Assembly: GCA_016282155.1 (NCBI GenBank)
Contig: JAEEJY010000005.1
Location: forward strand, 10,656 to 74,655
DNA from: Bacillales bacterium
GTDB lineage: Bacteria > Bacillota_I > Bacilli_A > RF39 > UBA660
Direction: 5' to 3'
Length of the DNA stretch: 64,000 bases
The notes below the pieces were generated by a model. That model was not told the DNA's origin. It saw only the letters and a list, made by a program, of their open reading frames with translations, and did not search any database. Position numbers and translations under genes: made by a program. This document shows positions 27,580-58,573 of the stretch, one piece after another. Numbering within the stretch: the first letter of the stretch is position 1; every line of letters begins with the position of its first letter.

Positions 27580-29643
27580 CTAATAAACGGGGGCGATAGT
27601 AGCATCAAAACCATAATATTCATTTACAATATTATCAGTTCTAAATACAATTTTAATGTAATTGCCTGGAACAGTAATATTAGTGGTTAAATTCTCGCCT
27701 TTATTTACGAATCCACCATATTTACCAAACGTACTACTTGAACCATACACATATACCCAATCATAGCTTGTACTTTCAGTAGCATAATTAAGGATGACTT
27801 CAATACTTGTTGCACCAGGGAAAGTATTTTCATAATATACAACATTATCAATGTTATTTGCGTATGGATTATGTTCTGACTCAACATATATTTGATCGGT
27901 AAGCTCTATATCTGTTACATTAGCATTAATAGAAGGCATAGTAAATTTTCTGTCATTAATCAAAGTACCATTCATTTTAAAACTAACAATTTTTTTATTC
28001 TGAGCTTTTAATGTGATATTAGTTCCTGGATAAGCACGAGATAATGATGGTGTTACAGTTGAATCACTAACTGTAATAGTATGTTTAGCAGGGCATGAAA
28101 CTTCAGTAACATTAACTCTATTACTATAGTTAGCCGTAGCTAAGACACTTTCAATATTAGCAGGACTATAATTACCACAGTCTAATCTAATATTTACTTG
28201 TCCATACTGTGCGGCATTTCTTAAGAAACTATTATAATTACCATTAGAAGCATCAAAATTTAAAGTAAAACTTGTATTTAAATATGGATTTTCTTCAAAC
28301 ATATAACTAATATTTTCAACATTGGAAAAGTCGAAATTTGAAATATTTAAATTTTTTACATTACGTCTTGCAAACATACCACCCATATTAGTAACATTAC
28401 TTGTATTAAAATTACTTAAATTTAAATCTAAGGTTGCTCTTACTTCACTTGCCTCATCTTCACCTTCCTCATCTATTGAAAACATACCACCCATATTAGT
28501 AACATTACTTGTATCAAAATTACTTAAATTTAAAGTCTCAAGGGAATAGCAGCCATTAAACATATTACCCATATTAGTAACATTACTTGTATTAAAATTA
28601 CTTAAATCTAAAGTCTCAAGGGAATAGCAGCCCCTAAACATACCTGCCATACTCTCAACATCACTTGTATCAAAATTACTTATATTCAAATTTTTGAGCG
28701 ACTCGCAATATTCAAACATACAATCCATATTAGTAACATTACTTGTATCAAAACTACTTAAATCTAAAGTCTCAAGGGAATAACACTCCTCAAACATACT
28801 TATCATACTCTCAACATTACTTGTATCAAAACTGCTCAAATCTAAAGTCTCAAGGGAATAATTACATTCGAACATAAAAGTCATATTGTAAACTTTACTT
28901 GTATCAAAATTATTAAATTCATATTTTCTTACATTCTCAAAATCGTAAAATAATTCTTCACTATCCCCCGGAGCAAATATTTTATAATCCGATATTACAT
29001 ATAAATCAAACGCTGGGGTTTCTGGTGGTGCCCCAGGACACACGGCATTAGGAGGACATATAGATCTATCACGAATATTTCCATTTCTAACTAAATAAGC
29101 TGTTATCATTCCAGGCTTTGAACCAACATCATACGAATAATAATATTCACTTGGAGCATCATCATATCCAAAAGTTACGGAAATAAGTTGGTGTGGATCT
29201 ATATAATCCCCATGTCCGCATTCTTTTTCATCCATTGGGCAGGCAAAATTATAATTCAAATATAAATCTTCATCAACAAGATGAATACTACAGCTTACTA
29301 TTTTTAAATCATTTCTTGTTCCACTAACACAATACTTACCATTTGATATTCTATCTGCATAATAAGTATTATCTCTATATGTTATTTTACCCTTTGTAAA
29401 TTGCTCTTTATTATTAATATCTATATCAATATTTTTGGCGTTTAATCCGTTTGAAGGGAACGTTTTTCCGTTAGAAGCATATTCTTCATCTACCGCTGTT
29501 AGAAGGCCATAAACGCTCACTTTAAAGGCATCTTTTTCTCTTTTATCAATGATATAATTAGTTACTGGTACAACAATAACAATAATTAATCCAAGAAGAG
29601 TAATTATTGCTATTAATTCAACTAGCGTAAATCCCTTTTTCAT
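27580..29643 (-). CDS. Type IV pilin-like surface protein with BspA/DUF285 repeats and C-terminal CUB-like domain
   Basis: MKKG|FTLVELIA prepilin site (start moved to 29643, RBS GGAGG); repeats LDLSxFDTSNVxxMxxMF; C-terminal ESEHNPY...TESTSYDWVYVY...FRTD...YYGF. Confidence 0.85.
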   Translation of the reverse strand: MKKGFTLVELIAIITLLGLIIVIVVPVTNYIIDKREKDAFKVSVYGLLTAVDEEYASNGKTFPSNGLNAKNIDIDINNKEQFTKGKITYRDNTYYADRISNGKYCVSGTRNDLKIVSCSIHLVDEDLYLNYNFACPMDEKECGHGDYIDPHQLISVTFGYDDAPSEYYYSYDVGSKPGMITAYLVRNGNIRDRSICPPNAVCPGAPPETPAFDLYVISDYKIFAPGDSEELFYDFENVRKYEFNNFDTSKVYNMTFMFECNYSLETLDLSSFDTSNVESMISMFEECYSLETLDLSSFDTSNVTNMDCMFEYCESLKNLNISNFDTSDVESMAGMFRGCYSLETLDLSNFNTSNVTNMGNMFNGCYSLETLNLSNFDTSNVTNMGGMFSIDEEGEDEASEVRATLDLNLSNFNTSNVTNMGGMFARRNVKNLNISNFDFSNVENISYMFEENPYLNTSFTLNFDASNGNYNSFLRNAAQYGQVNIRLDCGNYSPANIESVLATANYSNRVNVTEVSCPAKHTITVSDSTVTPSLSRAYPGTNITLKAQNKKIVSFKMNGTLINDRKFTMPSINANVTDIELTDQIYVESEHNPYANNIDNVVYYENTFPGATSIEVILNYATESTSYDWVYVYGSSSTFGKYGGFVNKGENLTTNITVPGNYIKIVFRTDNIVNEYYGFDATIAPVY
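28310..28925 (-). repeat. Tandem ~78-bp (26-aa) BspA/DUF285 leucine-rich repeats
   Basis: Recurrent ttacttgtat(c/t)aaaa and aaagtctcaagggaata blocks at 78-bp spacing, about 7-8 units, one interrupted by an acidic insert. Confidence 0.85.
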
Positions 29644-29665
29644 AAAATGCCTCCTATCTAAGTTT

Positions 29666-30649
29666 CTAACCAATAGTTTCGATATCACTTGTTTCATTTG
29701 CTTCTTCTTCACCATAGCCTGGACCCATAACAGTTACTTTCTTAGTAGCCGTCGCCTTATTACCTGTTTCATCTGTTGCTGTGTAAGTAATTGTATAAGT
29801 TCCTGGTATACCTAAGGCTAAATTAGTCTTAATATTTACTTTTGGTTCTACATCATAATTATCTGAAACTAAAATATAATCATATGCATTAAATTCAGTT
29901 TCATAATAAGGTATTTTTACATCCTGAGGCGATACTATAATAATAGGAGCTGATATATCCTTTACTGTTACAGTTCTCTCAGTTACTGAATTTTTATTTG
30001 ATAAATAAGTATTTGTGTAAATTAATACATATTTTGCTGGTTCAGATGTATCTAATTTTATATCTGTAATTTCATTTACTGATGAATTATAACTATTTAT
30101 CTCTGTACAAAAGCGACTATCACCACAACCTAAAACTGTAACTTCCCAAGAAGGATTAGTAATAAAACTGTACTTACCATACATATCAAATCCCGGTTCA
30201 TTATATTCTGAATTTATATCAATAGTCATCTCTTTATTACCTTTAAGTTTAGTAAGTCCCGAACTACTACTACAATGACCATCATAATAAGGGCTATCAA
30301 CATCAATAAAATAGAAATCATAAGTGCCCCCATAAATTTCTACATTCAAATATTCGTTACTTCGCGTTTTGTAAAAAGAATTGCTATTTGCATCTTTCGA
30401 AGATAAATATCCATCTTTAACAAGATCACTTAATTTAAAGCATTCTTCTGCATACATAACGCCTGGCGCTAATTTAGTACTTACATAATCTTTTGTTAAA
30501 TCATAAATAAACTCCCTTTCGGCATCTTCTTTTTCATAACGTGAACTTAAAAGCATATCACCTATCTTTGGAAGAGCTAAAGCACTAATTAGTCCTAAAA
30601 TAATAACTACCGCTAATGTTTCAATTAATGTAAAACCTTTTTTATTCAT
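29666..30649 (-). CDS. Type IV pilin-like protein with Ig-like (DUF5011-type) domains
   Basis: MNKKG|FTLIETLA; LKGNKEMTIDINSEYNEPG, PGTYTITYTATDETGNKAT. Confidence 0.82.
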   Translation of the reverse strand: MNKKGFTLIETLAVVIILGLISALALPKIGDMLLSSRYEKEDAEREFIYDLTKDYVSTKLAPGVMYAEECFKLSDLVKDGYLSSKDANSNSFYKTRSNEYLNVEIYGGTYDFYFIDVDSPYYDGHCSSSSGLTKLKGNKEMTIDINSEYNEPGFDMYGKYSFITNPSWEVTVLGCGDSRFCTEINSYNSSVNEITDIKLDTSEPAKYVLIYTNTYLSNKNSVTERTVTVKDISAPIIIVSPQDVKIPYYETEFNAYDYILVSDNYDVEPKVNIKTNLALGIPGTYTITYTATDETGNKATATKKVTVMGPGYGEEEANETSDIETIG

Positions 30650-39595: not shown

Positions 39596-39626
39596 AAAAA
39601 AGGAAGTTTAAAACTTCCTTTTTTTA
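39596..39626. terminator. Bidirectional terminator between lexA and pilin gene
   Basis: AAAAAAGGAAGTTT/AAACTTCCTTTTTT. Confidence 0.8.
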
Positions 39627-40007
39627 TTCACCATATACTTCAACCGGATTAGTACAAGACACTTCATATTCTATAATTTTACGACTATTTTTTGTTGCTT
39701 TAATTTGAATATTTTCATTATCACAATCCGTTGGATTAGAAATATCACTAGGAAGATAATCTCCCAAAATTAAGTCATTTAAAGTAAAAGTATATTCTCC
39801 CCCTACTTCTTTAAGTTCATCAATATCATCTAAATTAGTTTCTATATATGTAGAAGAAGCATTAGTAACATTCGTTACAAATGTTTTTTCTTCTTTTATT
39901 TGGGCATCTTTTATGCTTTTAGTTAAACTTGTAAATGATACTACCGCTATTACAGATAAAATTATAACTACTGCCATTAATTCAACTAATGTAAATCCTT
40001 TTTTCAT
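39624..40007 (-). CDS. Short type IV pilin-like protein
   Basis: MKKG|FTLVELMAVVIIL; two C-terminal Cys; start moved to 40007 (RBS AGGTGAG). Confidence 0.85.
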   Translation of the reverse strand: MKKGFTLVELMAVVIILSVIAVVSFTSLTKSIKDAQIKEEKTFVTNVTNASSTYIETNLDDIDELKEVGGEYTFTLNDLILGDYLPSDISNPTDCDNENIQIKATKNSRKIIEYEVSCTNPVEVYGE

Positions 40008-40059
40008 ATTCTCACCTATATTCATTATAGCATAAAAAAAGAATGTATAAAACATTCTT

Positions 40060-42582
40060 TTAAAATTTGAAATCATCTAAGAAATCGTCAATAGTTAAAA
40101 TCTTTTCATCAACTTTTTTAAGATCAATATCTTCTTTAACTACTTCTTCTTCCTTAACTACTTGAATAGAATCTGATTCTCTAGAAGATAATTCTTCTTT
40201 CAAGTATGCTTCATTTACTTTACCTTTAGTAAATTGTGTACCTGTTGAATATCTATCTGTGATAGGAAGTTCCGTAAGTTTAATAGTTTCAAAGTCATTA
40301 CCTATTTTAACTAATACACTACTTTTATTTGAAACAATAAATGTATTAATGATACTATATGGGTTTGTCTTTACATCACGTACCATAAGTACACCTTTTT
40401 TAGCACGACTTATTTTTTCAAACTCAGATAACTTAATACGTTTACCTGTTCCCTTATCAGTAATAACAGTTAAGTATTCTGCTGTTCCATCAAAAATAGT
40501 TGCTGTTACAACAAAGTCGTTCTTAAGAGCAATTGCTTTAACACCACTTGCTCTTAATCCTACAGGACTTACTTCGTTAACATCATATCTTAATCCATAA
40601 CCATTGTTTGTTGTGATAAATATTTCTGTTCCACAAGAATCAGTAACACTTACAACTTCATCATTATCTTTAAGCTTCATACAGTTAATAGGTTTACTAT
40701 AACGTTGAACCTTAAATTCATCTAACTTAGTACGTTTAACCATACCATTTTTCGTAAATGTTGTAATATATTTATCTTCATTAAAATCATAAACAGGTAT
40801 TGAAGAAATAATTTTTTCTTCTTCTTGAATTTTAATAACGTTACTTATATGTTTACCAAGCTCTTTCCATTTAAGTTCTGGAAGTTCATAAACTGGTACA
40901 TATAAATAATTACCTAAATTAGTAAATAGAAGTAATGTATCTAACGTATTCATTTCATACATTCCAATTATGCAACTACCCTCTTTAATAAGAGTATCTT
41001 CATCTTTATTATAACTACGAAGAGATACTCTTTTTACATATCCTTCATTAGTTACAACAACAATACAATCTTCTTTACTAATCATATCAGTTGTATCAAT
41101 CTTTATCTCAGTTATTTCATCTTGAATAACAGTTTTACGTTCAGTAGCATATTCTTTCTTAACAGCACGTAATTCATCTTTCATAACTGATTTTAATACT
41201 TCTTCATCATCAAGAATTTTTCTTAATCTTTCAATTTCACGAGCTAAAGCATCTTTTTCTTCTTCTAAAGCAACCACATCAGTATTTGTTAAACGATATA
41301 ATTGTAATACAACAATTGCTTCAGCTTGTTCTTCTGTAAAACCAAATTCTTTACATAAATTAGTCTTAGCATCACTCTTATTTTTAGATGCACGAATTAT
41401 CTTAATTACTTCATCTAAAATTGATAATGCTTTAATAAGACCTTCAACAATATGCATTCTTTTTTCAGCTGTTGCTAGTTCAAAGTTTGTTCTATTTAAA
41501 ATGCATTCTTTGTTATGTGCGATATAAGCGTCTAAGATAGGAATAATTCCTAAAGTCATTGGTCTTCTATTAACTATAGAAACCATATTATAATTATAGC
41601 TTATTTGTAGTTCAGTATTCTTAAGTAAGTAATTTACTACTAAATCACGACTTGCTCCTGATTTTAAATCAATTGCAATACGAAGACCAGTACGGTCTGA
41701 TTCATCTCTTACTTCACTAATACCATCTATTTTTTTATCAATTCTAATTTCATCTATTTTTTTAACTAATAATGCTTTATTAACTTCAAAAGGAATTTCT
41801 GTAATAATAATTTGCTCTTTTGATTTTTCTTTAACAAATTCATATTTACTTCTTACTATTACTTTTCCTCTACCAGTTGTAAAAGCATCAATAATACCAC
41901 TTTTACCTTCGACGATACCACCTGTAGGAAAATCTGGTCCCTTAACTATTTCTAGAATTGTATCTAAACGACAATTAGGGCTATCAATTCTTTTAATAGT
42001 TGCATCAATTATTTCCCCTAAATTATGTGGTGGAATATTAGTAGCATAACCAGCACTAATACCACTTGATCCATTTACAAGTAAATTAGGAAATCTAGCA
42101 GGTAAAACTGTAGGTTCTAATTCGGTATCATCAAAATTAGGAGCCCATTTAATTGTATCTTTATCAATGTCTCTTAATAGTTCATTAGATATTTTTGATA
42201 GACGAGCCTCTGTATAACGCATTGCGGCTGCACCATCACCATCCATTGAACCATTATTACCTTGCATATCTACATAACAAGTATTTTGTTTCCACCATTG
42301 TGACATACGTACCATCGCATCATAGATTGAACTATCACCATGAGGATGGTAATTACCCATTATGTATCCAACTGTTTTAGCACTCTTACGATATGGTTTA
42401 TCGTAAGTATTATGATCCTTATACATTCCATATAATATTCTTCTTTGTACAGGTTTTAATCCATCACGAACATCAGGTATAGCACGATCTTGAATAATAG
42501 ATTTAGCATATCTACCAAATCTATCACCCATTATTTCTTCTAGGGCATAATCGTGAATTCTTTTTAATACGTCATCTTGCAT
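40060..42582 (-). CDS. parC: DNA topoisomerase IV subunit A
   Basis: LEEIMGDRFGRYAKSIIQDRAIPDVRDGLKPVQRR, HPHGDSSIYDAMVRM, AAMRYTEARL. Confidence 0.94.
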   Translation of the reverse strand: MQDDVLKRIHDYALEEIMGDRFGRYAKSIIQDRAIPDVRDGLKPVQRRILYGMYKDHNTYDKPYRKSAKTVGYIMGNYHPHGDSSIYDAMVRMSQWWKQNTCYVDMQGNNGSMDGDGAAAMRYTEARLSKISNELLRDIDKDTIKWAPNFDDTELEPTVLPARFPNLLVNGSSGISAGYATNIPPHNLGEIIDATIKRIDSPNCRLDTILEIVKGPDFPTGGIVEGKSGIIDAFTTGRGKVIVRSKYEFVKEKSKEQIIITEIPFEVNKALLVKKIDEIRIDKKIDGISEVRDESDRTGLRIAIDLKSGASRDLVVNYLLKNTELQISYNYNMVSIVNRRPMTLGIIPILDAYIAHNKECILNRTNFELATAEKRMHIVEGLIKALSILDEVIKIIRASKNKSDAKTNLCKEFGFTEEQAEAIVVLQLYRLTNTDVVALEEEKDALAREIERLRKILDDEEVLKSVMKDELRAVKKEYATERKTVIQDEITEIKIDTTDMISKEDCIVVVTNEGYVKRVSLRSYNKDEDTLIKEGSCIIGMYEMNTLDTLLLFTNLGNYLYVPVYELPELKWKELGKHISNVIKIQEEEKIISSIPVYDFNEDKYITTFTKNGMVKRTKLDEFKVQRYSKPINCMKLKDNDEVVSVTDSCGTEIFITTNNGYGLRYDVNEVSPVGLRASGVKAIALKNDFVVTATIFDGTAEYLTVITDKGTGKRIKLSEFEKISRAKKGVLMVRDVKTNPYSIINTFIVSNKSSVLVKIGNDFETIKLTELPITDRYSTGTQFTKGKVNEAYLKEELSSRESDSIQVVKEEEVVKEDIDLKKVDEKILTIDDFLDDFKF

Positions 42583-47919: not shown

Positions 47920-47920
<1 letters not shown>
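46874..47920 (-). CDS. Hypothetical acidic protein with C-terminal TM tail
   Basis: No signal peptide; ends KTNKVKQLVMTPYNGFVSFVTLTMIVTAYGVGFLIYLFTIIK. Confidence 0.65.
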
Positions 47921-49212
<1,292 letters not shown>

Positions 49213-49659: not shown

Positions 49660-50061
49660 TTATTTTTTTATTTCATATCTAATTTCAACAGCTTCTGATA
49701 AATCAGTATTTATTGAAGCTTTAATTGTTTTAGAACCTTTTTTAGGTATTACATCACCTACATAGCCAGGCATTGTTACTATTACATTACCATCTTTACC
49801 AATTACTATAATTTCATATTCTTCTAACTTATAATCTGCATCTGTATTATTAACAGCTTCAGCTACATAATATGATATTCCATCTTCAATAACTAAAGAA
49901 ACTCCTTTGATAGTGATACCATCAACATCTTGTTCTTTAACTACTTCTTCATTAGTGTTTACATTAATATTTGGTTCTTTTTTTTCTTCTTTTTTCTTGC
50001 ATCCTGTAAAAAGAACTAAAACAGTTAGCATTACTATACCTAATTTCATCATTTTTTTCAT
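49660..50061 (-). CDS. Lipoprotein with FxLYD-like Ig domain; last gene of pilin operon
   Basis: Lipobox LFTGC; NNTDADY...IIVIGKDGNVI...G; RBS GGAGG 12 bp after the previous stop. Confidence 0.7.
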   Translation of the reverse strand: MKKMMKLGIVMLTVLVLFTGCKKKEEKKEPNINVNTNEEVVKEQDVDGITIKGVSLVIEDGISYYVAEAVNNTDADYKLEEYEIIVIGKDGNVIVTMPGYVGDVIPKKGSKTIKASINTDLSEAVEIRYEIKK

Positions 50062-50073
50062 TTTATCTACCTC

Positions 50074-50994
50074 CTAATCTAAAATGAATGGGTAATCTAA
50101 TGTTCCAGCACTAGGAACATAATTAATATTTGCTTTTAATACCAATATTGGGCGAAGATGGGCAGTCACAGAAGACTCAGTGTACTTCCCGTGAATAAAA
50201 TAATAAAGAAATCCAGTATCCGCATGGATGCTATTAGCATTTACCCTTGCTATAAAATCCCACATTTCAAGTGAAGTATCAACATTATTGTAATACCTTG
50301 ATGCCCAATAATAATCATAAATGCTATTAACTGTACCATACACATTTTTAATCAAATTAAAATCGGTGTTATTTGACCATTGATCACCTGCGCCAAAAGG
50401 TTCTTCTTCTATTTGATAGCGATTACTATCAGTAGTATAATTCCATGGTTTAGTAGTTTGAACTAATTTTGTATCATCAGTAATATACTCAGTCTGATTA
50501 GTGTATCCTGCACATCTTGATCCTATAGTATATTTACTATTCTCATATTTACTGGCTAATACATTTAAATACCCTACTAAATTCATGTATCCAGTCTTAC
50601 CATAAAATTGTATTTCTTCTTCCGCAGGAGTATCTGCAATCATCTCTACCACACCATTATTAACCTTTATAACACGCCATAATTTTAACTTACTTGGATT
50701 AATTTTTTTACCATAATAATATCCAGTCATAGTTCTACTCGTTGTAAAACTCGTAACTGTCGGCGTCATTTGAATATAATCTCCAACTTGTGGAGTGTTA
50801 TGTAATAAGAAGCATTTATATCCTGATGGGCAATCACTATTATTAGCAAATAAAGTATCCAAAGCAGATTGCACGCTTGTTCCATTTGATAACACAATAG
50901 AATCCGAAGAATATAACGATGATGCAATCGCAGTACTCATCAAAATAATGCTTACAAGCAAAAAAACAAAAAAATTATTACTTAGTTTCCGCAT
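50074..50994 (-). CDS. Secreted paralogue 4 (type A), putative C-type-lectin-like fold
   Basis: Signal peptide; VQSALDTLF; VGDYIQMTP, LWRVIK, YWASR...LRPILVLK...GTLDYPF. Confidence 0.8.
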   Translation of the reverse strand: MRKLSNNFFVFLLVSIILMSTAIASSLYSSDSIVLSNGTSVQSALDTLFANNSDCPSGYKCFLLHNTPQVGDYIQMTPTVTSFTTSRTMTGYYYGKKINPSKLKLWRVIKVNNGVVEMIADTPAEEEIQFYGKTGYMNLVGYLNVLASKYENSKYTIGSRCAGYTNQTEYITDDTKLVQTTKPWNYTTDSNRYQIEEEPFGAGDQWSNNTDFNLIKNVYGTVNSIYDYYWASRYYNNVDTSLEMWDFIARVNANSIHADTGFLYYFIHGKYTESSVTAHLRPILVLKANINYVPSAGTLDYPFILD

Positions 50995-51003
50995 TTTATC
51001 CTC

Positions 51004-51960
51004 CTACTCTAATACAAATGGATCATTAATTGTACCAGCACTAAGCTTATAATTAATACTTGATTTTAATATTAATATTGGGCGAAGATGGAAATAACTA
51101 TACGCACCCGAAATATCTGTATATCCCCAAACAAGATTTTCTGCTTTTAAATTATCTTCGACATATCTTGGGCGAAAATACCACAAACCAGAAGTTGCTC
51201 CTTCATAAGTCCTAGAGGCTATAAAATATTTATATGTACTCCTCAACTTACCATACACATTTTGGACCAAGTTAATATCATTTACATATCCAAGATCACC
51301 ACCACCTAAGGATTCATAATTTTCCGGGTGGCAACTTTCACCGGTACTACAAGTCCATGGCCTCATTTCGTTTAATTTTGTATCATCCGTTAAGTATTCA
51401 GTTTGATTACTATAGCCCATGTGTCTTGATCCTACAGTATATTTACTATTCTCATACTTACTAGCTAATACATTTAAATAACCTATGTAATTCATATAAC
51501 CAGCTTTTCCATAAAAATCAATTTCTTCACTAGAAGGCTCATTAGATACCATTTCTATTGTTCCATCATTATTTACTTTTATAACGCGCCACAAATTAAC
51601 TTTATATGGATAAATTGTTTGTGATGAACCATATCCAGTCTTTGTCTTATCTGTCGCAAAACTTCTAAGTGTTGGTGTCATCTTAATATAATCACCAACT
51701 TCTGGAGTTGATTTTAATTTTATACACATATAATATGGTGGGCATTCCATACTTTCTCTTGCTTCTGCCTTAACATATAAAGCATCTAATGCATCTTTTA
51801 AAGTTGCATTAGCACTTAAATTTGAAATATTTGTAGTATCAACACTGATACTACTTGAATCTATTTTTGTACCTGCTACTACATGTATAACTGTTACTAA
51901 TATAATTGCGAGAATAAGACCATATATATAATGTCCTAATTTTCTGAATGTCTTTCTCAT
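51004..51960 (-). CDS. Secreted paralogue 3 (type B), putative C-type-lectin-like fold
   Basis: Signal peptide; LKDALDALY; same core and ASR...LRPILILK C-terminus. Confidence 0.8.
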   Translation of the reverse strand: MRKTFRKLGHYIYGLILAIILVTVIHVVAGTKIDSSSISVDTTNISNLSANATLKDALDALYVKAEARESMECPPYYMCIKLKSTPEVGDYIKMTPTLRSFATDKTKTGYGSSQTIYPYKVNLWRVIKVNNDGTIEMVSNEPSSEEIDFYGKAGYMNYIGYLNVLASKYENSKYTVGSRHMGYSNQTEYLTDDTKLNEMRPWTCSTGESCHPENYESLGGGDLGYVNDINLVQNVYGKLRSTYKYFIASRTYEGATSGLWYFRPRYVEDNLKAENLVWGYTDISGAYSYFHLRPILILKSSINYKLSAGTINDPFVLE

Positions 51961-51968
51961 AATGTCAC

Positions 51969-52886
51969 CTATCCTAAAATAAATGGGGAAGTTTCTGTTC
52001 CTAAAGATGGTGTGTAACTAATACCAGCTTTTAATATTAATATTGGACGAAGAGTTAATGATGTACTACTGGTCTCTCTAAATTTACTGCTGGAATAGTA
52101 ATATGTATAAGTATTACCAACAGCACCTTCAGAAACTGTACGTATCCTAAATCTCCATGAAGTACTACTTGAATAATCATAATATCGGGAAGCTAAATAG
52201 TAAGCTCCCGAACCAGTAGTAAGAGTTTTAAAAACCGATGTTACCAACTGTATATCCGTATTATATCCTGAATCACCTCCACCAAGATTTTCTTGGTTCT
52301 CCGGATGGCAACTTGCCCCCGTATCACAGGTCCAAGGAACAGAAGTTTGAGTTAATTTAGAAGTATCTGTTATATATTCAGTTTGACTACTATATCCAAT
52401 GTATCTTGAACCAGCAGTATATTTACTGTTTTCATATTTACTAGCCAACAAATTTAAATATCCAATATAATTCATATATCCTGCCTTACCATAAAAAGTT
52501 ACTTTTTCTGAAGAACTATTAGTAGAGATTATTTCCATTGTACCATCACTATTAACTCTTATTACACGCCATAAAGTCAATTTACTTGGATAAATTGTTT
52601 GTGCTGAACTATATCCAGTCTTAGTTTTATCTGTTGTAAAACTTGTTAGCGATGGAGTCATCTGAACATAATCACCTACTTGTGGTATATTATGATTCAA
52701 AAAACATTTATATCCAGCTGGGCAATCTGTTTTTTTACTATATAAATCTTCTATTGCATTCTGCAATGCTGAATTATCACTTAAAATAATTGAGTCGGCA
52801 GAATATGTTGATGATGCAACAGCTATTGTCAGCGATATAACGCAAATAAATAATAATATACATATTTTATCCATTGTATTTTTCAT
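51969..52886 (-). CDS. Secreted paralogue 2 (type A), putative C-type-lectin-like fold
   Basis: Signal peptide; LQNAIEDLY; same core. Confidence 0.8.
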   Translation of the reverse strand: MKNTMDKICILLFICVISLTIAVASSTYSADSIILSDNSALQNAIEDLYSKKTDCPAGYKCFLNHNIPQVGDYVQMTPSLTSFTTDKTKTGYSSAQTIYPSKLTLWRVIRVNSDGTMEIISTNSSSEKVTFYGKAGYMNYIGYLNLLASKYENSKYTAGSRYIGYSSQTEYITDTSKLTQTSVPWTCDTGASCHPENQENLGGGDSGYNTDIQLVTSVFKTLTTGSGAYYLASRYYDYSSSTSWRFRIRTVSEGAVGNTYTYYYSSSKFRETSSTSLTLRPILILKAGISYTPSLGTETSPFILG

Positions 52887-52894
52887 ATTATCAC

Positions 52895-53863
52895 CTACTC
52901 AAGAATAAACGGATCATCTGCAACTCCGGCTGCTGGAGTATAACTAATACCAGCTTTTAATATCAATATTGGACGAAGTGAATATTCTGAAAATGAAGTT
53001 TCTAATTTTCCACTTGACCAGTATGCTACAGCATCAGAAGTTAATAATCCATCTTCAATTGTTCTACATTCAAACCAATCACCGTAGTCTACATATCTAG
53101 AAGCAACATAATAATCTTTTGCCATACTAATAGCATTTATATTTTTTAATAAATTATAATCTGTTACATAACCAAAATCACCGCCACCAAGATTTTCTTG
53201 ATTTTCCGGATGGCAACTTTCACCGGTAGCGCATGTCCAAGCATTTGACTCACTTGTAGTTAATTTAGAAGTATCTGTAATATACTCAGTTTGATTACTA
53301 TACCCCATATGTCTTGATCCTATAGTATATTTGCTGTTTTCATACTTACTAGCTAAAACATTGAGATATCCAATATAATTTACATAACCGGTTATAGTAG
53401 CAAATGCTACAGTCTCCGGTGTAGGCTCTGCAGAAACGATTTCTATTGTACCATCACTATTTTTTCTTATAACACGCCACATGTTTACTCTACTAGGATA
53501 AATTGTAGATGTACTTAAATAACTAAGATAGCCTGTTTTATTTCTATCAGTTGTAAAACGAGTTATTGTTGGCGTCATTTGAATATAGTCTCCAACATCA
53601 GGAGTATTTTTTTGTCTTATACAAGTATAATATGATGGACAAGTTGCACTTTCTCTAGCAGCTGCTTTCACATATAAGCCATCTAGTGCATCTTTTACGC
53701 TTGCTCCATCATTTAATTCTTCGATATTAGTTGCATCAACACTAACATTTGCAGAGTCTATATGAACAGCTGCCGCAAAAGTATGTTGCACAGCAACAGT
53801 TAGAAGGAAAGCGATAATAATAACATAAATACAGTCGCCTAATTTCTTTAAGAACTTTCTCAT
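52895..53863 (-). CDS. Secreted paralogue 1 (type B), putative C-type-lectin-like fold
   Basis: Signal peptide; VKDALDGLY; same core. Confidence 0.8.
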   Translation of the reverse strand: MRKFLKKLGDCIYVIIIAFLLTVAVQHTFAAAVHIDSANVSVDATNIEELNDGASVKDALDGLYVKAAARESATCPSYYTCIRQKNTPDVGDYIQMTPTITRFTTDRNKTGYLSYLSTSTIYPSRVNMWRVIRKNSDGTIEIVSAEPTPETVAFATITGYVNYIGYLNVLASKYENSKYTIGSRHMGYSNQTEYITDTSKLTTSESNAWTCATGESCHPENQENLGGGDFGYVTDYNLLKNINAISMAKDYYVASRYVDYGDWFECRTIEDGLLTSDAVAYWSSGKLETSFSEYSLRPILILKAGISYTPAAGVADDPFILE

Positions 53864-53867
53864 ATTA

Positions 53868-56800
53868 TCACTCCCCTAATCTATTATATAAATCACTTAT
53901 TGCTTGCTCTACTGTAATCTCACTACCACCTACAGGTGTATAGTAAACGTTACTTGCTGATTCTCCTATCTTTGTTTCAATATATGTTGCTGTTTCGGAA
54001 TATTCATTTCCTTCATTAAGACGTACATAAACCGTTGTTGGTTTAGCTGTATTAGCTTCATGAGTTAAAGTTATCTTTCCGCCCTTAACTATATTTGTCC
54101 AATCAACATTTTGTGTAGTGTCACTTCCAACCACAATTTTGTATTGTAGTTGACTTGCGTCTTCAGAAGTAATTGTTATCTCCCTACTTGTAGCCCAATT
54201 ACTACCATTAGGTGTAATTGTTATTGCTTTAAATGCTTCTACCATTGCAGAACTAGTTCGACTTGTTGAGTAACCAGCTCCGTTAGTCGAAGTAATCTTA
54301 TAATAAATATTACCTGAAATATTACTGATTACACAAGCACCATCTACTAATGAACCAGTTCTATTATAAGCATTAGAACTTGTTTCAACATTACTTGTTC
54401 CATACTTACATACAGTACTTGCAATATCAGATTCGGGATCTTCTGCTGTAAATGGAACTGTAATAGATGTATGTGTTGCAACGCCAGTACTTAAAGTAAC
54501 TATTGGATCTGTTGGATCAATAGCAGTCTCAGTATAAGTATATGTGTCTGAATAAGTATTAGTTACCGTATTCTTAAACCTTAAATATATATAAGTAGGA
54601 CTATCAAGTGTTGCAGCACTATTTAATGTTATAATCGAACCTCTCGCTTTAGTTGTCCAATCTACATCTTTAGAATGATCACTTGATACTACTAATTTAT
54701 ATTGAAGTTCAGAATTTTCTGCTACTCCTTTTAAAGTCATAGTTTTGGTCTTTGCCCACCCTGTTTTTGAAGAAGTTACTTTTAAAGATTCACCCACAAA
54801 ATATGAAGTTTGTCTTGCATTAGTATTATTTTGATATAAGGTTGGGGAGGCAACATTAAACGCTACAACTCTAAAGTATTTATTTCCTCTTCCAATTTGA
54901 CTCTTAGTATAAACACATGATCCCGTCAAATAATTCTTCCCTACTTCAACACTTGGTTGACTATACGCATAGGTCCAAGTTGAACCATTATTACTATTAT
55001 AAGTACAACTAATAGATTTTAATCCACTTTCATAATCAGATACAGTAAAAGGGACAGTTATTGTACTATCAGTTTCAGTAATAGAACCTAAAGTAAGCGC
55101 TGGGAAAGATCTGTCAACTTGAGTTTCAGTATAAGTGAGTGTGCTATCTGTTGAGTATGTTTTTTTATTATATAATCTCACGTAAACAGTTGTAGGACTA
55201 GTTGGTGTTGAAGTTGTAGTAACATAAACAGTACCCCCTGATTTTATATCAGTCCAACTATAACCACTACCCCTTTTATACTGCAACGTATAACCTTTTT
55301 TTGCTCCTCTTACAGTTAAATCTCTTTCGTAAGCCCATCCAGTTGAATCTGGTGTTATGCTAATTTCTTGAGGTGTAATTTGATATATAGGTGTACTTTT
55401 ACCTACTAAACCATTACTATTTTCTGCTTGAATATAAGAATAGAATTCTTTTAATGTTGTCGTTATAATACATATATTATCTTGTACAACACCATACTGT
55501 TCAGATTCACCTTCAGCATAATATCTACATCCTACTTCCGTAATTGCAGATTCCTTATCTTCTACAGTAAATGGGATTGCATAAGTGTTAGTTCCCATTG
55601 GAATAATTTGGGTAGCATTAATTTTAGGAGCTATTAAATCTAAATTAACTTCTACAAAAACTGTCTCATCTATTACTTCTCTTGTAATATTGTTATATAT
55701 TCTTGCATAAATATATGTTGGAGTTTCTATAGATGAGTGTGTTTTTACTGTAGCATATCCAATTTCAGCTGTTTCATCATCATCTGTTGATTTTGTATCA
55801 GGACGGTCCCAATCAGTACTAGAATTTGAATCATATTTAGAAATAATTCGATATTGGAAACTTAAGAATGAAGGTAACACATTTGATTCAATTTTATACT
55901 CTCTTCCTATTACTACATCATCACTATTAGTTATATTTTTTTCTGTTGTAATAGTTAAATTATATTTTGATATTGTTTCAGTTAAACCCGTTACAATTGT
56001 AGATAAACCTTTATAGTTTACTGATGTAACTCGGTAATACATATTTTCACCATTAGAAACAAAACGGCAACTATTATTATCAACCATACCTACATTTCCA
56101 TAAGTTAAATCTTTACCATATTCACATATTGTTTCACGAATACCAGTTTCATAATCATAGTTTTTGCTAAATGGTAAAACAGTACGGAATGAAGTTGTAA
56201 TTGGTGTTCCTATTTCTAATACTGGAGGTGTTGTGTCTATTACATTAACATTTCTCGTTTTAGAATATACTAAACCATTTGTTGTTAAAGTATATTGGAT
56301 ATAAGATTTACCACCTTCTACTATATACTCAACAAGTAATTTAGTCTTATCATCTTGATATGCATATGTAGGAACATTAAAAGTTAAATTAACATTTTCA
56401 CTTGTTATTATATGTTCTACACTATTAAAATCTTTAAATTTTACTCCCGGTTCAACATAACCTGTATCTGGATTCCATGTTACAGGATTATCTCCAAGTA
56501 ACTCTAAATACAAATTATTAATTGCACTACTACAATCATCCTCTGAACCATCAAGAAGTTTATCACCACTTATTTTATAAGAATATGTATTTTTAGTTTT
56601 TTTAATAACAAAACGCATAGCGTTTGATAAACAACTTTCTGTTTTAGGATTACGAATATCAGAATCAACAATATTTGCTTGTTTTAATTCGGCAAGTGTT
56701 ATTACAATTTCATCATTACTATAAAATCTATCATAATTATCTTTAGTCCAAGCCTCTAAAGAATTTAATAGGGAAACTTTTTGCTTATTATAAGCGTCAT

Positions 56801-56909
56801 CTTTAGCGTTCTTAATACCTCTATCTACTGCGGGAACTACTATTACGGCAAGTACTCCTAAGATAGTAATAACTGCAAGTACTTCAACTAACGTAAAACC
56901 TTTTTTCAT
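53868..56909 (-). CDS. Giant type IV pilin-like protein with repeated beta-sandwich stalk
   Basis: MKKG|FTLVEVLA; Ig-like LLGDNP...YVEPG; four ~190-aa bipartite repeats (PFTxxDxESxI...C...C and LQYK...WT...PTxxYxR); ends ASNVYY...TVEQAISDLY. Confidence 0.85.
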   Translation of the reverse strand: MKKGFTLVEVLAVITILGVLAVIVVPAVDRGIKNAKDDAYNKQKVSLLNSLEAWTKDNYDRFYSNDEIVITLAELKQANIVDSDIRNPKTESCLSNAMRFVIKKTKNTYSYKISGDKLLDGSEDDCSSAINNLYLELLGDNPVTWNPDTGYVEPGVKFKDFNSVEHIITSENVNLTFNVPTYAYQDDKTKLLVEYIVEGGKSYIQYTLTTNGLVYSKTRNVNVIDTTPPVLEIGTPITTSFRTVLPFSKNYDYETGIRETICEYGKDLTYGNVGMVDNNSCRFVSNGENMYYRVTSVNYKGLSTIVTGLTETISKYNLTITTEKNITNSDDVVIGREYKIESNVLPSFLSFQYRIISKYDSNSSTDWDRPDTKSTDDDETAEIGYATVKTHSSIETPTYIYARIYNNITREVIDETVFVEVNLDLIAPKINATQIIPMGTNTYAIPFTVEDKESAITEVGCRYYAEGESEQYGVVQDNICIITTTLKEFYSYIQAENSNGLVGKSTPIYQITPQEISITPDSTGWAYERDLTVRGAKKGYTLQYKRGSGYSWTDIKSGGTVYVTTTSTPTSPTTVYVRLYNKKTYSTDSTLTYTETQVDRSFPALTLGSITETDSTITVPFTVSDYESGLKSISCTYNSNNGSTWTYAYSQPSVEVGKNYLTGSCVYTKSQIGRGNKYFRVVAFNVASPTLYQNNTNARQTSYFVGESLKVTSSKTGWAKTKTMTLKGVAENSELQYKLVVSSDHSKDVDWTTKARGSIITLNSAATLDSPTYIYLRFKNTVTNTYSDTYTYTETAIDPTDPIVTLSTGVATHTSITVPFTAEDPESDIASTVCKYGTSNVETSSNAYNRTGSLVDGACVISNISGNIYYKITSTNGAGYSTSRTSSAMVEAFKAITITPNGSNWATSREITITSEDASQLQYKIVVGSDTTQNVDWTNIVKGGKITLTHEANTAKPTTVYVRLNEGNEYSETATYIETKIGESASNVYYTPVGGSEITVEQAISDLYNRLGE

Positions 56910-56911
56910 AT

Positions 56912-57352
56912 CTAGTCCCTCGGATCACCTTTAGCAGGTTCACCATTATAAGGTTTAAGATTGCTTTCACTACAACTACTGTCATCATAAGTATAAGTGT
57001 CTTTAAGTAAAGTATACTTAAATGAATTCTTAATACGGGTAATTCGAATAACAGTATCATTGCTTACGCAAGAGTCATTTCTTGGATCCCTTACATCTAC
57101 ATCTAGTAATTCCATAAATTTTAAATATCCTAATGTAATATCAAGATATCCTCCATCTTCTTCCGGTATCTCACTAGCTAAATATGGCGTAGCTGTCTTA
57201 GCAGCATCTATTATGGAATTAATTTGACCATCATATAGCTTTTCCCTATTAGATTTTAAAATTGAATCAACGCCTGGTACAACAATTAAAGCAAGAACAC
57301 CTATAATTGTTATCACGGCTAACACTTCTACTAACGTAAATCCTTTTTTCAT
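56912..57352 (-). CDS. Short type IV pilin-like protein; first gene of operon
   Basis: MKKG|FTLVEVLAVITIIG; pilin domain similar to the N-terminus of the next gene (ITL..LK...D.D.R.P....C.SN); start moved to 57352. Confidence 0.87.
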   Translation of the reverse strand: MKKGFTLVEVLAVITIIGVLALIVVPGVDSILKSNREKLYDGQINSIIDAAKTATPYLASEIPEEDGGYLDITLGYLKFMELLDVDVRDPRNDSCVSNDTVIRITRIKNSFKYTLLKDTYTYDDSSCSESNLKPYNGEPAKGDPRD

Positions 57353-57409
57353 ATTCTCACCTATTATCATTATATCATAAAAAAAGAACAAAAAAATACT
57401 TTTTTGTTC

Positions 57410-58573
57410 TTAAAAATTGAGCATTATCCATTCTGGTTTAAAGATTAATAATAAACCTATTAAAATCATTATAATTCCACCTACTAAATGGCATAATCTA
57501 TTATATTTAGTTGTAATTCCTGATAATTTTAATGATACCATAGCTATAACAAATACAACTAGGTCATCTAATAAATAGAAGAATACATATAATAAAATAT
57601 ATAATATTTCTTTAACTAATGAGATATTATTTAAATCCATTATAGATACAAATATACTTGGGAAACCTGCTGAGCAAGCAAGTTCTACCATATTAACACT
57701 AATAGCTAAAGCAATTACACCTATTAAGGCAAAGATAATACTTTTTTCTTTAGTAAATTTATCTATTCTCGTAAAATACTTCTTACGTTTTTTGCTATCA
57801 ACTACTGTACAACCATCTTTAGGTGTTTCAATATAAGATTTTATATTAAGTATTCCACCTACTAAAGCTACTAAAGCAATTATTCTTCTTACCCAAATAA
57901 CAGCAGTAAATGATAGTACTACAGATAGTCCTAGCATTGCTAAGAAATATACAAATGCACTAGTAAATAAGAAAGTAAATCCTATTAACCACATTCTCTT
58001 TTTATTTTGCATATTAAATAGCATATTTATTAAGAATAATAATACCCACATAGCACAAGGATTAAATCCATCAATTAAACCTAATACTACCGCTACTAAA
58101 GGAATAGATACATCCTTAGCACTTACTTTACCTAATAAAGGTAAGGAAAATGTTTTTTCTGTATTTTTAGTTTCTTTTAGATAATTATCAATTATACTTC
58201 TTATTTCTTCTTTACGTGAATCACCAAAGCCTGTAAAAGATTCATCACCTATTACTGTAAAAGGTACATATTGATCATGCTTTTCAAATCTTTCTTTAAC
58301 CAAATTCATGTATTCAGCATTCTTTTTATTACCTGACACTTCATATCTTCTTACTGTGATTTTATCTTTATACTCTTCTTCTAATTCATCTAAGAAGGCC
58401 ATTTCTTTACGGCAATGTGGGCAACTTTCTTGATGAAATAAATATATTGTTAAATTATTAGTTTTTTCTTCACCTACTATATCATACACTCTATCAATAT
58501 ATGTACTCTTAGCAGATACCAACATAGGTATAAAAAGTAATAATGTAAATATTAGTAATTTAAATCTTTTCAT
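57410..58573 (-). CDS. Extracytoplasmic thioredoxin/glutaredoxin domain fused to CcdA/DsbD-like membrane domain
   Basis: Signal peptide, CPHC, VPF, then TM region with DGFNPCAMWV and ELACSAGFP cysteines. Confidence 0.8.
   Translation of the reverse strand: MKRFKLLIFTLLLFIPMLVSAKSTYIDRVYDIVGEEKTNNLTIYLFHQESCPHCRKEMAFLDELEEEYKDKITVRRYEVSGNKKNAEYMNLVKERFEKHDQYVPFTVIGDESFTGFGDSRKEEIRSIIDNYLKETKNTEKTFSLPLLGKVSAKDVSIPLVAVVLGLIDGFNPCAMWVLLFLINMLFNMQNKKRMWLIGFTFLFTSAFVYFLAMLGLSVVLSFTAVIWVRRIIALVALVGGILNIKSYIETPKDGCTVVDSKKRKKYFTRIDKFTKEKSIIFALIGVIALAISVNMVELACSAGFPSIFVSIMDLNNISLVKEILYILLYVFFYLLDDLVVFVIAMVSLKLSGITTKYNRLCHLVGGIIMILIGLLLIFKPEWIMLNF

Follow-up and report, generated by a model that had tools for sequence, protein, structure and literature searches.

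The window analysed here, a 64,000-nucleotide stretch of contig JAEEJY010000005.1 from a Bacillales bacterium (assembly GCA_016282155.1), carries at positions 49660-57352 a run of seven genes, all on the minus strand: a short pilin, a giant pilin, four paralogous proteins that we call heads (C1 to C4) and a lipoprotein. The gaps between them are 2, 4, 8, 8, 9 and 12 nucleotides, with 2 nucleotides separating the stop of the short pilin from the start of the giant one. An earlier reading made from the letters alone (the sequence-only reading) had described seven co-oriented genes 2-12 bp apart, and both that layout and all the peptide strings it quoted are present as written. A Kyte-Doolittle scan finds just one hydrophobic stretch per protein, N-terminal in all seven, which agrees with the further claim of that reading that the paralogues have no membrane anchor past the signal peptide. 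The giant pilin ends in a short motif, which we call the neck, that recurs near the N-terminus of the heads. We consider it probable that this operon encodes a split adhesin, in which the tail neck of a pilin stalk joins the necks of one head of each of two types, A and B, non-covalently.

In both pilins PF07963 and TIGR02532, above cut-off, mark a prepilin-type N-terminal domain, with a class III signal peptide of the form G↓F-T-L-x-E. Beyond this domain the giant pilin matches no Pfam or NCBIfam family. Its pilin module of about 130 residues is followed by alternating repeated beta-rich domains with a cysteine pair in each (93/126, 262/281, 461/480, 635/665 and 834/859); the gene itself has no DNA tandem repeats. 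A phmmer search of 1.84 billion representatives returned 2771 relatives at E≤0.001, the N-terminal ~240 residues aligning with short pilins and residues 520-1000 with the repeated domains of other long pilins. A word-based search with the C-terminal 314 residues found only one relative besides the query. By its domain layout, the giant pilin answers to the description of a modular pilin, with folded modules apparently grafted into one chain.

The heads C2-C4 are 45-57% identical to C1 and have necks of two types, long (type B; C1 and C3) and short (type A; C2 and C4). With C1 as the query, the family counts 449 members at E≤0.001, most of them 300-330 residues long. Among the matches listed, 120 relatives share a leader, a neck, a CPxGYxC loop and a globular domain with LRPI-x-LK at its end, and their necks follow the consensus V-x-Y-x-N-x-x-S-x-L-x-S-x-x-V-Q-x-A-I-D-E-L. 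C1-C4 belong to no Pfam, NCBIfam or PHROGs family, PHROGs also had no match on the neck, and the PDB gave none at E≤10 for one head and for the head profile. The leaders end, by eye, at TFA↓A (C1), AVA↓S (C2), VAG↓T (C3) and AIA↓S (C4), after hydrophobic h-regions of about 15 residues, and look like cleavable signal peptidase I sites.

In its stalk form, the neck comprises about 30 residues: a short strand, S-x-x-V-Y-Y, and then an amphipathic helix, V-x-x-A-I-x-x-L-Y. A hidden Markov model (HMM) built from nine other stalk tails, without the window, placed the giant pilin first of 2251 open reading frames (ORFs), with E=0.0015 on whole ORFs; scored on ORF segments, the pilin reached 20.4 bits (E=4.9e-4), and the next matches were the window's own heads. 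The likeness between pilin tail and head necks that the sequence-only reading had seen as a pattern is also significant between profiles: hhalign aligned the stalk-tail with the head-neck profile at 98.1% (E ~1e-13) over all 31 columns, with or without the window's tail, a figure that is inflated because the stalk tails were picked for showing the motif. The stalk-tail HMM ranking of the proteome is free of this selection bias. Eleven stalk tails carry A-S-x-x-x-Y ... V-Q-x-A-x-D-x-L at their very end, behind domains that are poorly conserved. The shared neck motif is real but weak within the window. Cassette switching between the 3' end of the pilin gene and the 5' ends of the head genes was considered and rejected, because DNA alignment of these ends revealed no extended identity.

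We predicted the structure of a 1:1:1 complex of pilin residues 885-1013, mature C1 (type B) and mature C2 (type A). The interface score ipSAE was 0.70 (0.71, 0.70 and 0.68 in the individual runs) versus 0.00, 0.01 and 0.01 in three controls; in the third of these C1 was swapped for an unrelated protein, and the score of the pilin fell to 0.01. In calibration, 58 of 80 solved complexes and 2 of 110 mismatched pairs attained the ipSAE mark used; these counts are only rough here, since they were obtained for pairs with other alignments whereas we modelled three chains with alignments of our own. The runs agree in at least 78% of their contacts, and the pLDDT of the partners is 67 or higher. Confident contacts fall only on residues 981-993 and 1000-1012 of the pilin, 33-40 and 56-71 of C1, and 28-36 and 41-57 of C2, which in every one of the three necks correspond to the strand and the helix. 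The sequence-only reading had made a confident interface its test, with a 1:1:1 trimer in mind, and the model has one, on the motifs and far above the best of the three controls. The predicted complex supports binding between stalk and heads.

The pairing of a stalk tail with neighbouring head necks recurs elsewhere. Searches with the head alignment found 90 loci, 43 in genome and 47 in metagenome collections. When the neck HMM was run on the C-terminal 45 residues of the 509 ORFs in the first 43, two scored well above the third (5.9 bits), one in L044 (38.5 bits) and one in L043 (18.6 bits), each directly upstream of two heads. A C-terminal neck pattern, written post hoc after the cases had been seen, matches 6 of the 749 ORFs in all 90 loci (L043, L044, L106, L111, L128 and L135), and all six adjoin a head whose N-terminus carries a neck; in the window's own genome it matches a single ORF of 1237, the giant pilin. 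The co-occurrence of C-terminal copies on stalks with N-terminal copies on adjacent heads, which the sequence-only reading had proposed, is thereby seen in six distinct tail types.

L106 comes from the window's own species. In L044 the whole cassette recurs: a 719-residue prepilin-type protein ending in ASDIYYNNSTYTNGDITVQEAIEELYKKLS (neck HMM, independent E-value 4.4e-9) precedes two heads, and after these comes a lipoprotein with 46% identity to that of the window; this pilin has the same alternating domain types as the giant pilin, one of them called fn3 by Pfam. L043 and L111 both contain a 5'-cut ORF with a cysteine-bearing variant of the tail, …NCDNVQCAIDALDKILSN, and then two heads, L128 has a tail of the cysteine-bearing type and then one head, and in L135 a head is followed by a 1015-residue non-pilin protein ending in the motif. 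A further locus, L107 (3-2653), has the last head and the lipoprotein as in the window, a different first head and a divergent cysteine-bearing stalk tail, …GDVQCILDRIADEIG, recognized by eye, which suggests that stalk and head were replaced together. Among the best 150 of the 2771 relatives of the giant pilin, seven end in a neck (P0122, P0125, P0195, P0238 and P0269 by pattern, P0127 and P0128 by eye) and two others are stalk-head fusions. All seven neck-ending relatives start like prepilins, and TIGR02532 was found in the four that were tested.

The fusions are informative as to what the neck is for. Where a head directly follows a stalk in one covalent chain, its sequence sets in at the GDYV motif, and neck and cysteine loop are both missing (L054, L055, L053, L066, L067, L059, P0227 and P0190). 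The neck is thus kept on both partners when they are split and is dispensable when they are one chain, as a docking module predicts. In a third arrangement a stalk-type neck is internal, between an N-terminal part and a head, and free heads are present in the same locus (L045, L047, L051, L052, L057, L058, L119 and L121). Necks linked to stalks form a class of their own, with A-S-x-x-x-Y plus V-Q-C, or V-E/Q-Q/E in the window and L044. Free heads are mostly paired, with two different necks per pair. Within a locus, the necks of paired heads are less alike (31-65% identity, median 41) than their globular domains (55-99%, median 80) in 12 of 12 pairs; cross-locus pairs judged to be of the same class (n=13) have neck identities of 40-71%, median 59. 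In a globular-domain tree of 49 rows, made by a quick method with SH-aLRT support only, heads group by locus. A hetero-oligomer fits this picture of heads being homogenized while three neck classes persist side by side.

Several observations weigh against a stalk-head complex. Against an HMM of head necks, built from 104 relatives with the window's close kin left out, the giant pilin tail scored only 9.2 bits (E=1.7 over 35,193 segments), rank 6 of 2251 ORFs; this HMM did not report the tail within the whole 1013-residue ORF, nor did an alignment-based genome search, and taken alone the head-neck test makes the resemblance suggestive only. The complex is a prediction, and for the mixed 1:1:1 stoichiometry only. 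In a sample of 150 other genomes of the order, only 2 have the head family. Of 38 loci with N-terminally necked heads, tallied partly by pattern and partly by eye within the stretches fetched, seven have a stalk with a tail neck, eight a large protein with an internal stalk-type neck and 23 neither; for several of these 23 (L046, L048, L049 and L063) the visible flanks span 4-8 kb on either side. In four further genomes, the neck profile at E≤0.1 found N-terminal or internal copies and no C-terminal one. Leader and neck also precede unrelated C-terminal domains in L098, L102 and L104, so that the neck is not confined to pilin partners. Among relatives, the adjacency that the sequence-only reading had proposed to look for is seen in six tail types, and most heads elsewhere have no pilin neighbour.

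Much of this would also suit a neck that only self-associates. Heads would then build homo- or hetero-oligomers among themselves, in the medium or close to the membrane, giant pilins would bundle by their tails, as minor pilins do in trimers, and the common motif would reflect descent from a fused stalk-neck-head ancestor, with no stalk-head complex at all. The many heads that lack a nearby stalk partner, the unrelated proteins led by a neck, and the eight loci in which stalk, internal neck and head are a single chain count in its favour, and our prediction covers only a mixed assembly of stalk, C1 and C2. We nevertheless regard it as unlikely. Mere self-association does not account for why tail-neck stalks are found only beside neck-bearing heads (the six pattern matches among 749 ORFs), for the loss of the neck in direct pilin-head fusions, or for three distinct conserved neck classes being kept in one locus; nor does it sit well with the collapse of the pilin score to 0.01 once C1 is replaced by an unrelated protein.

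A neck could instead be a tag read by a shared third party for processing, sorting or anchoring, for instance the lipoprotein or a component of the cell envelope, with no contact between necks. The position of the neck, always directly after the leader or at the end of the chain, is compatible with such a tag, as is the conservation of the lipoprotein family downstream of heads: homologues with 30-46% identity lie directly downstream of them in L044, where stalk and heads are split, and in L053, L054 and L055, where they are fused. The last three loci speak against it in turn, and the lipoprotein is an unlikely partner of the neck because it also follows these neckless fusions. The predicted contacts, moreover, run from neck to neck, and we judge a third-party tag to be distinctly improbable. 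That the pilin tail is a decaying remnant or a chance resemblance with no function, an idea suggested by the weak head-neck HMM score and the lack of DNA identity between pilin and head ends, is very improbable and already disfavoured, given the motif at the extreme C-terminus of eleven stalk proteins with poorly conserved preceding domains, the seven neck-ending proteins among the best 150 pilin relatives, and the top rank of the giant pilin with the independent tail HMM.

The heads of some relatives are targets of diversity-generating retroelements (DGRs). In L045, L047, L048 and L052, a cassette lies between two heads: after the first head come an ORF with a MutS_I domain and an Avd-like ORF, then the template repeat and the reverse transcriptase (PF00078, E=1.5e-12), and then the second head. 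The Avd-like ORF matches no Pfam family, and its name is our own reading. In L047, a 137-nucleotide template differs from the 3' part of each of the two heads at 25 positions, 19 of which are template adenines; for the three targets in L052, the mismatches at template adenines number 16 of 19, 17 of 22 and 18 of 25. One of the three targets is distant and shares that template with the others. By the adenine-specific mismatches, the variable C-terminal part of the head is a DGR variable region in these relatives, which points to a ligand-binding surface.

The window's own assembly, which is 92% complete, yielded no DGR. Its sole reverse transcriptase is a 501-residue ORF, and the 3' ends of its heads have no template-like copy. 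A DGR acting in this genome was rejected on the missing template-like copy, the reverse transcriptase being judged not DGR-like by size alone. This enzyme (L086, contig C25 519-2024) stands with a 285-residue partner ORF and could be a defence-type reverse transcriptase. Head variation in this genome is carried by four fixed paralogues. As to fold, the heads gave no match to Pfam DUF6273 (PF19789) at E≤0.1 and stayed below its gathering score; hhalign aligned the head with a true DUF6273 domain (from L022) over 28 C-terminal columns at 77%, and the ESM Atlas returned a DUF6273 cluster at 0.90, rank 8. The head thus appears distantly like DUF6273 by a weak link, and from this we infer that it is lectin-like, with a C-type-lectin-like fold and a ligand.

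Returning to the split adhesin, we propose that the giant prepilin-type protein would serve as the stalk, with a pilin module, about eight beta-rich domains and a terminal neck of about 30 residues, and that it would be incorporated into a type IV filament. Each head would be exported by its cleavable leader, leaving a mature chain of neck, CPxxYxC loop and variable lectin-like head. A stalk neck would then pack with a single neck of each head type, A and B, into a bundle of three strands and three helices, mounting two heads at the distal end of the stalk, and C1+C2 and C3+C4 may be alternative loads of different binding specificity. The sequence-only reading had taken the motif for a hetero-oligomerization module, and the predicted interface, the profile similarity and the recurrence in other loci all support it, the binding itself being a prediction.

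A wider proposal, possible but in our view with the odds somewhat against it, is that the neck is a portable plug and socket that mounts exchangeable lectin heads, some of them hypermutated by DGRs, on varied scaffolds through obligate stalk/A/B heterotrimers in gut Bacilli with reduced genomes. Here the scaffolds would be type IV pilins; other lineages would use stalks that are not pilins and have a different kind of leader, and strains would gain, lose and replace head pairs. If true, this would be a cellular counterpart of the swapping of receptor-binding proteins on phage tail fibres.

The coordinates of the features are collected in Table 1. Upstream of the first gene we see a likely operon start, for which the evidence is weak and which a consensus promoter scan did not list. 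The operon is flanked on one side by enolase-like and FtsK-like genes and on the other by thioredoxin/CcdA-like and cysteine-desulfurase-like genes, all named from their translations only. An enolase-like gene adjoins the system in three loci (window 47920-49206, L081 4931-6166 and L141 1730-2962). In genome G111 (L022 699-3464), an iPGM directly upstream of two heads is fused to a transmembrane segment and a DUF6273 domain (Pfam), and a second DUF6273-like stretch is visible by eye. The lipoprotein family has weak matches to FxLYD and DUF5643. In eight loci, a conserved transmembrane protein of about 160 residues ending in …YDLYTVK lies between a giant stalk protein bearing its own head and the free heads (L045 4369-4911, L051 4855-5361, L117 4448-4912, L118 550-1050, L121 3061-3543, L122 3272-3784, L130 1399-1890 and L142 709-1215); it could be an accessory factor and is absent from the window operon.

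Table 1. Features of the pilin-head operon in the window, and DGR cassettes in related loci
Feature	Position	Strand	Description and evidence
Short prepilin-type pilin, first operon gene	56912-57352	minus	146 aa from ATG at 57352; PF07963 E=1.1e-6, TIGR02532 E=4.2e-8
Giant modular type IV pilin	53868-56909	minus	1013 aa; PF07963 and TIGR02532
Giant pilin C-terminal neck motif	53871-53960	minus	residues 984-1013, SASNVYY...VEQAISDLYNRLGE
Head C1, type B (long) neck	52895-53863	minus	322 aa; leader, neck motif, CPSYYTC loop, globular variable domain
Neck of C1	53651-53767	minus	residues 33-71; motif HMM 26.9-38.5 bits; predicted interface
Head C2, type A (short) neck	51969-52886	minus	305 aa; paralogue alignment
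Neck of C2	52716-52811	minus	residues 26-57; motif HMM and predicted interface
Head C3, type B neck	51004-51960	minus	318 aa; paralogue alignment and motif HMM
Head C4, type A neck	50074-50994	minus	306 aa; paralogue alignment and motif HMM
Conserved lipoprotein, last gene	49660-50061	minus	133 aa; lipobox LFTGC
Candidate operon start	57353-57410	minus	by eye: T-rich hairpin of upstream gene, TATAAT-like box, AGGTGAG ribosome-binding site
DGR cassettes in related loci	L047 4932-8921; L052 4947-8951 and 15079-16467		

The host is uncultured, and its assembly measures 1.17 Mb in 39 contigs, with a G+C content of ~28%. Its pilus machinery is all on contig C8 and consists of a prepilin peptidase (PF01478, E=3.9e-14), an assembly ATPase (PF00437, E=4e-125) and a platform protein (PF00482, two matches). 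This 1.17-Mb genome has 31 prepilin-type ORFs by prepilin domain and 32 by our own pattern, many of them long and modular, with DUF285, BspA-type leucine-rich repeats, RCC1 propeller or Ig-like modules; such ORFs within the window lie at 27580-29715, 29666-30649 and 39624-40076. The prepilin leader seems to be a general display route for surface proteins in this genome.

Contigs that nearly match parts of the locus letter for letter occur in bovine-gut and other gut metagenome runs, which share 13-40% of sampled words with the stretch and were interpreted only where contigs cover it. Contigs in two runs of different studies join position 50108 of the window to 52008, skipping 1899 nucleotides with 4 letters between; this is a strain form one head pair short, apparently produced by recombination between paralogues. 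The related loci come from gut metagenome-assembled genomes labelled uncultured Bacilli, Tenericutes or Erysipelotrichaceae.

If the split adhesin is real, one stalk could carry alternative heads, and this would help to account for the way in which gut symbionts with only about 1 Mb of DNA change what they bind at low cost. It would also give the lectin heads that DGRs diversify in cellular genomes a place on a defined surface structure. The idea is directly testable, with a neck of ~30 residues, soluble fragments and clear predicted contacts, and the neck could be of use as a small heterotrimerization or display tag. Our literature searches found no description of docking by three classes of homologous necks or of its link to DGR-type heads.

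Among known systems, the heads recall the receptor-binding proteins of phages. DUF6273-like domains are reported to be C-type-lectin-like DGR targets in such proteins, and Mtd of phage BPP-1 presumably attaches to the tail fibre by its N-terminal part (PMC10743442). Relatives of the window heads share with phage DGR heads a variable region at the C-terminal end, adenine-specific mismatches and a template repeat by the reverse transcriptase, whereas the window system is a cellular operon among housekeeping genes and has no DGR acting on its heads. The sequence-only reading had pointed to a likeness of the motif to helices in the necks of phage tail fibres and tailspikes, which fared less well: the neck profile does find a phage protein as its best PDB match (9occ_G, residues 143-159 of gp13 of Shigella phage Sf11), with a non-significant E-value of 0.16, and PHROGs has none. 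In Sf11, one adaptor helix of a structural protein joins the N-terminal helices of the tailspike in a bundle (PMC12724387). The gp13 match lies outside the docking helices modelled there (residues 4-59), and we take the likeness as analogy only.

Within type IV pili, Streptococcus sanguinis PilB and PilC are said to have adhesive modules (a vWA module and a lectin module, respectively) covalently grafted on pilins. The giant pilin likewise has extra domains on a pilin module, and relatives of the window include pilin-head fusions. The difference is that the adhesive module of PilB and PilC is covalent, whereas the window stalk ends in a neck and its heads are separate secreted proteins. A secreted partner docked on a type IVb minor pilin is reportedly found in the TcpB-TcpF system of Vibrio cholerae. 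The sequence-only reading had not known its architecture as described, and here a functional precedent does exist: secreted CofJ docks via an N-terminal extension on the minor pilin CofB of the CFA/III pilus of enterotoxigenic Escherichia coli and mediates attachment (PMC6048534).

We regard CofB-CofJ and TcpB-TcpF as the closest functional precedent, systems that would work alike without the window being a member of them. In these systems, as in the window, one operon encodes a large modular pilin along with a protein that is secreted. The secreted partner in the known systems docks by its N-terminal region on the distal pilin; for the window such docking is predicted. Searches of Pfam, NCBIfam and the PDB gave no sequence or domain homology between these proteins and those of the window. 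The sockets differ as well: that of CofB-CofJ is the H-type lectin domain of a pilin trimer, whereas in the window homologous strand-helix necks, from one stalk and two heads, are predicted to come together. Unlike CofB-CofJ, moreover, the window system belongs to a monoderm gut bacterium with a reduced genome, and its heads are paralogous pairs and, in relatives, DGR targets. The proposed system combines a modular type IV pilin, as in PilB and PilC, with a secreted docked partner, as in CofB-CofJ. If it holds, a non-covalent neck encoded in the sequence would be a second way to arm the type IV pili of monoderm bacteria, besides covalent grafting.

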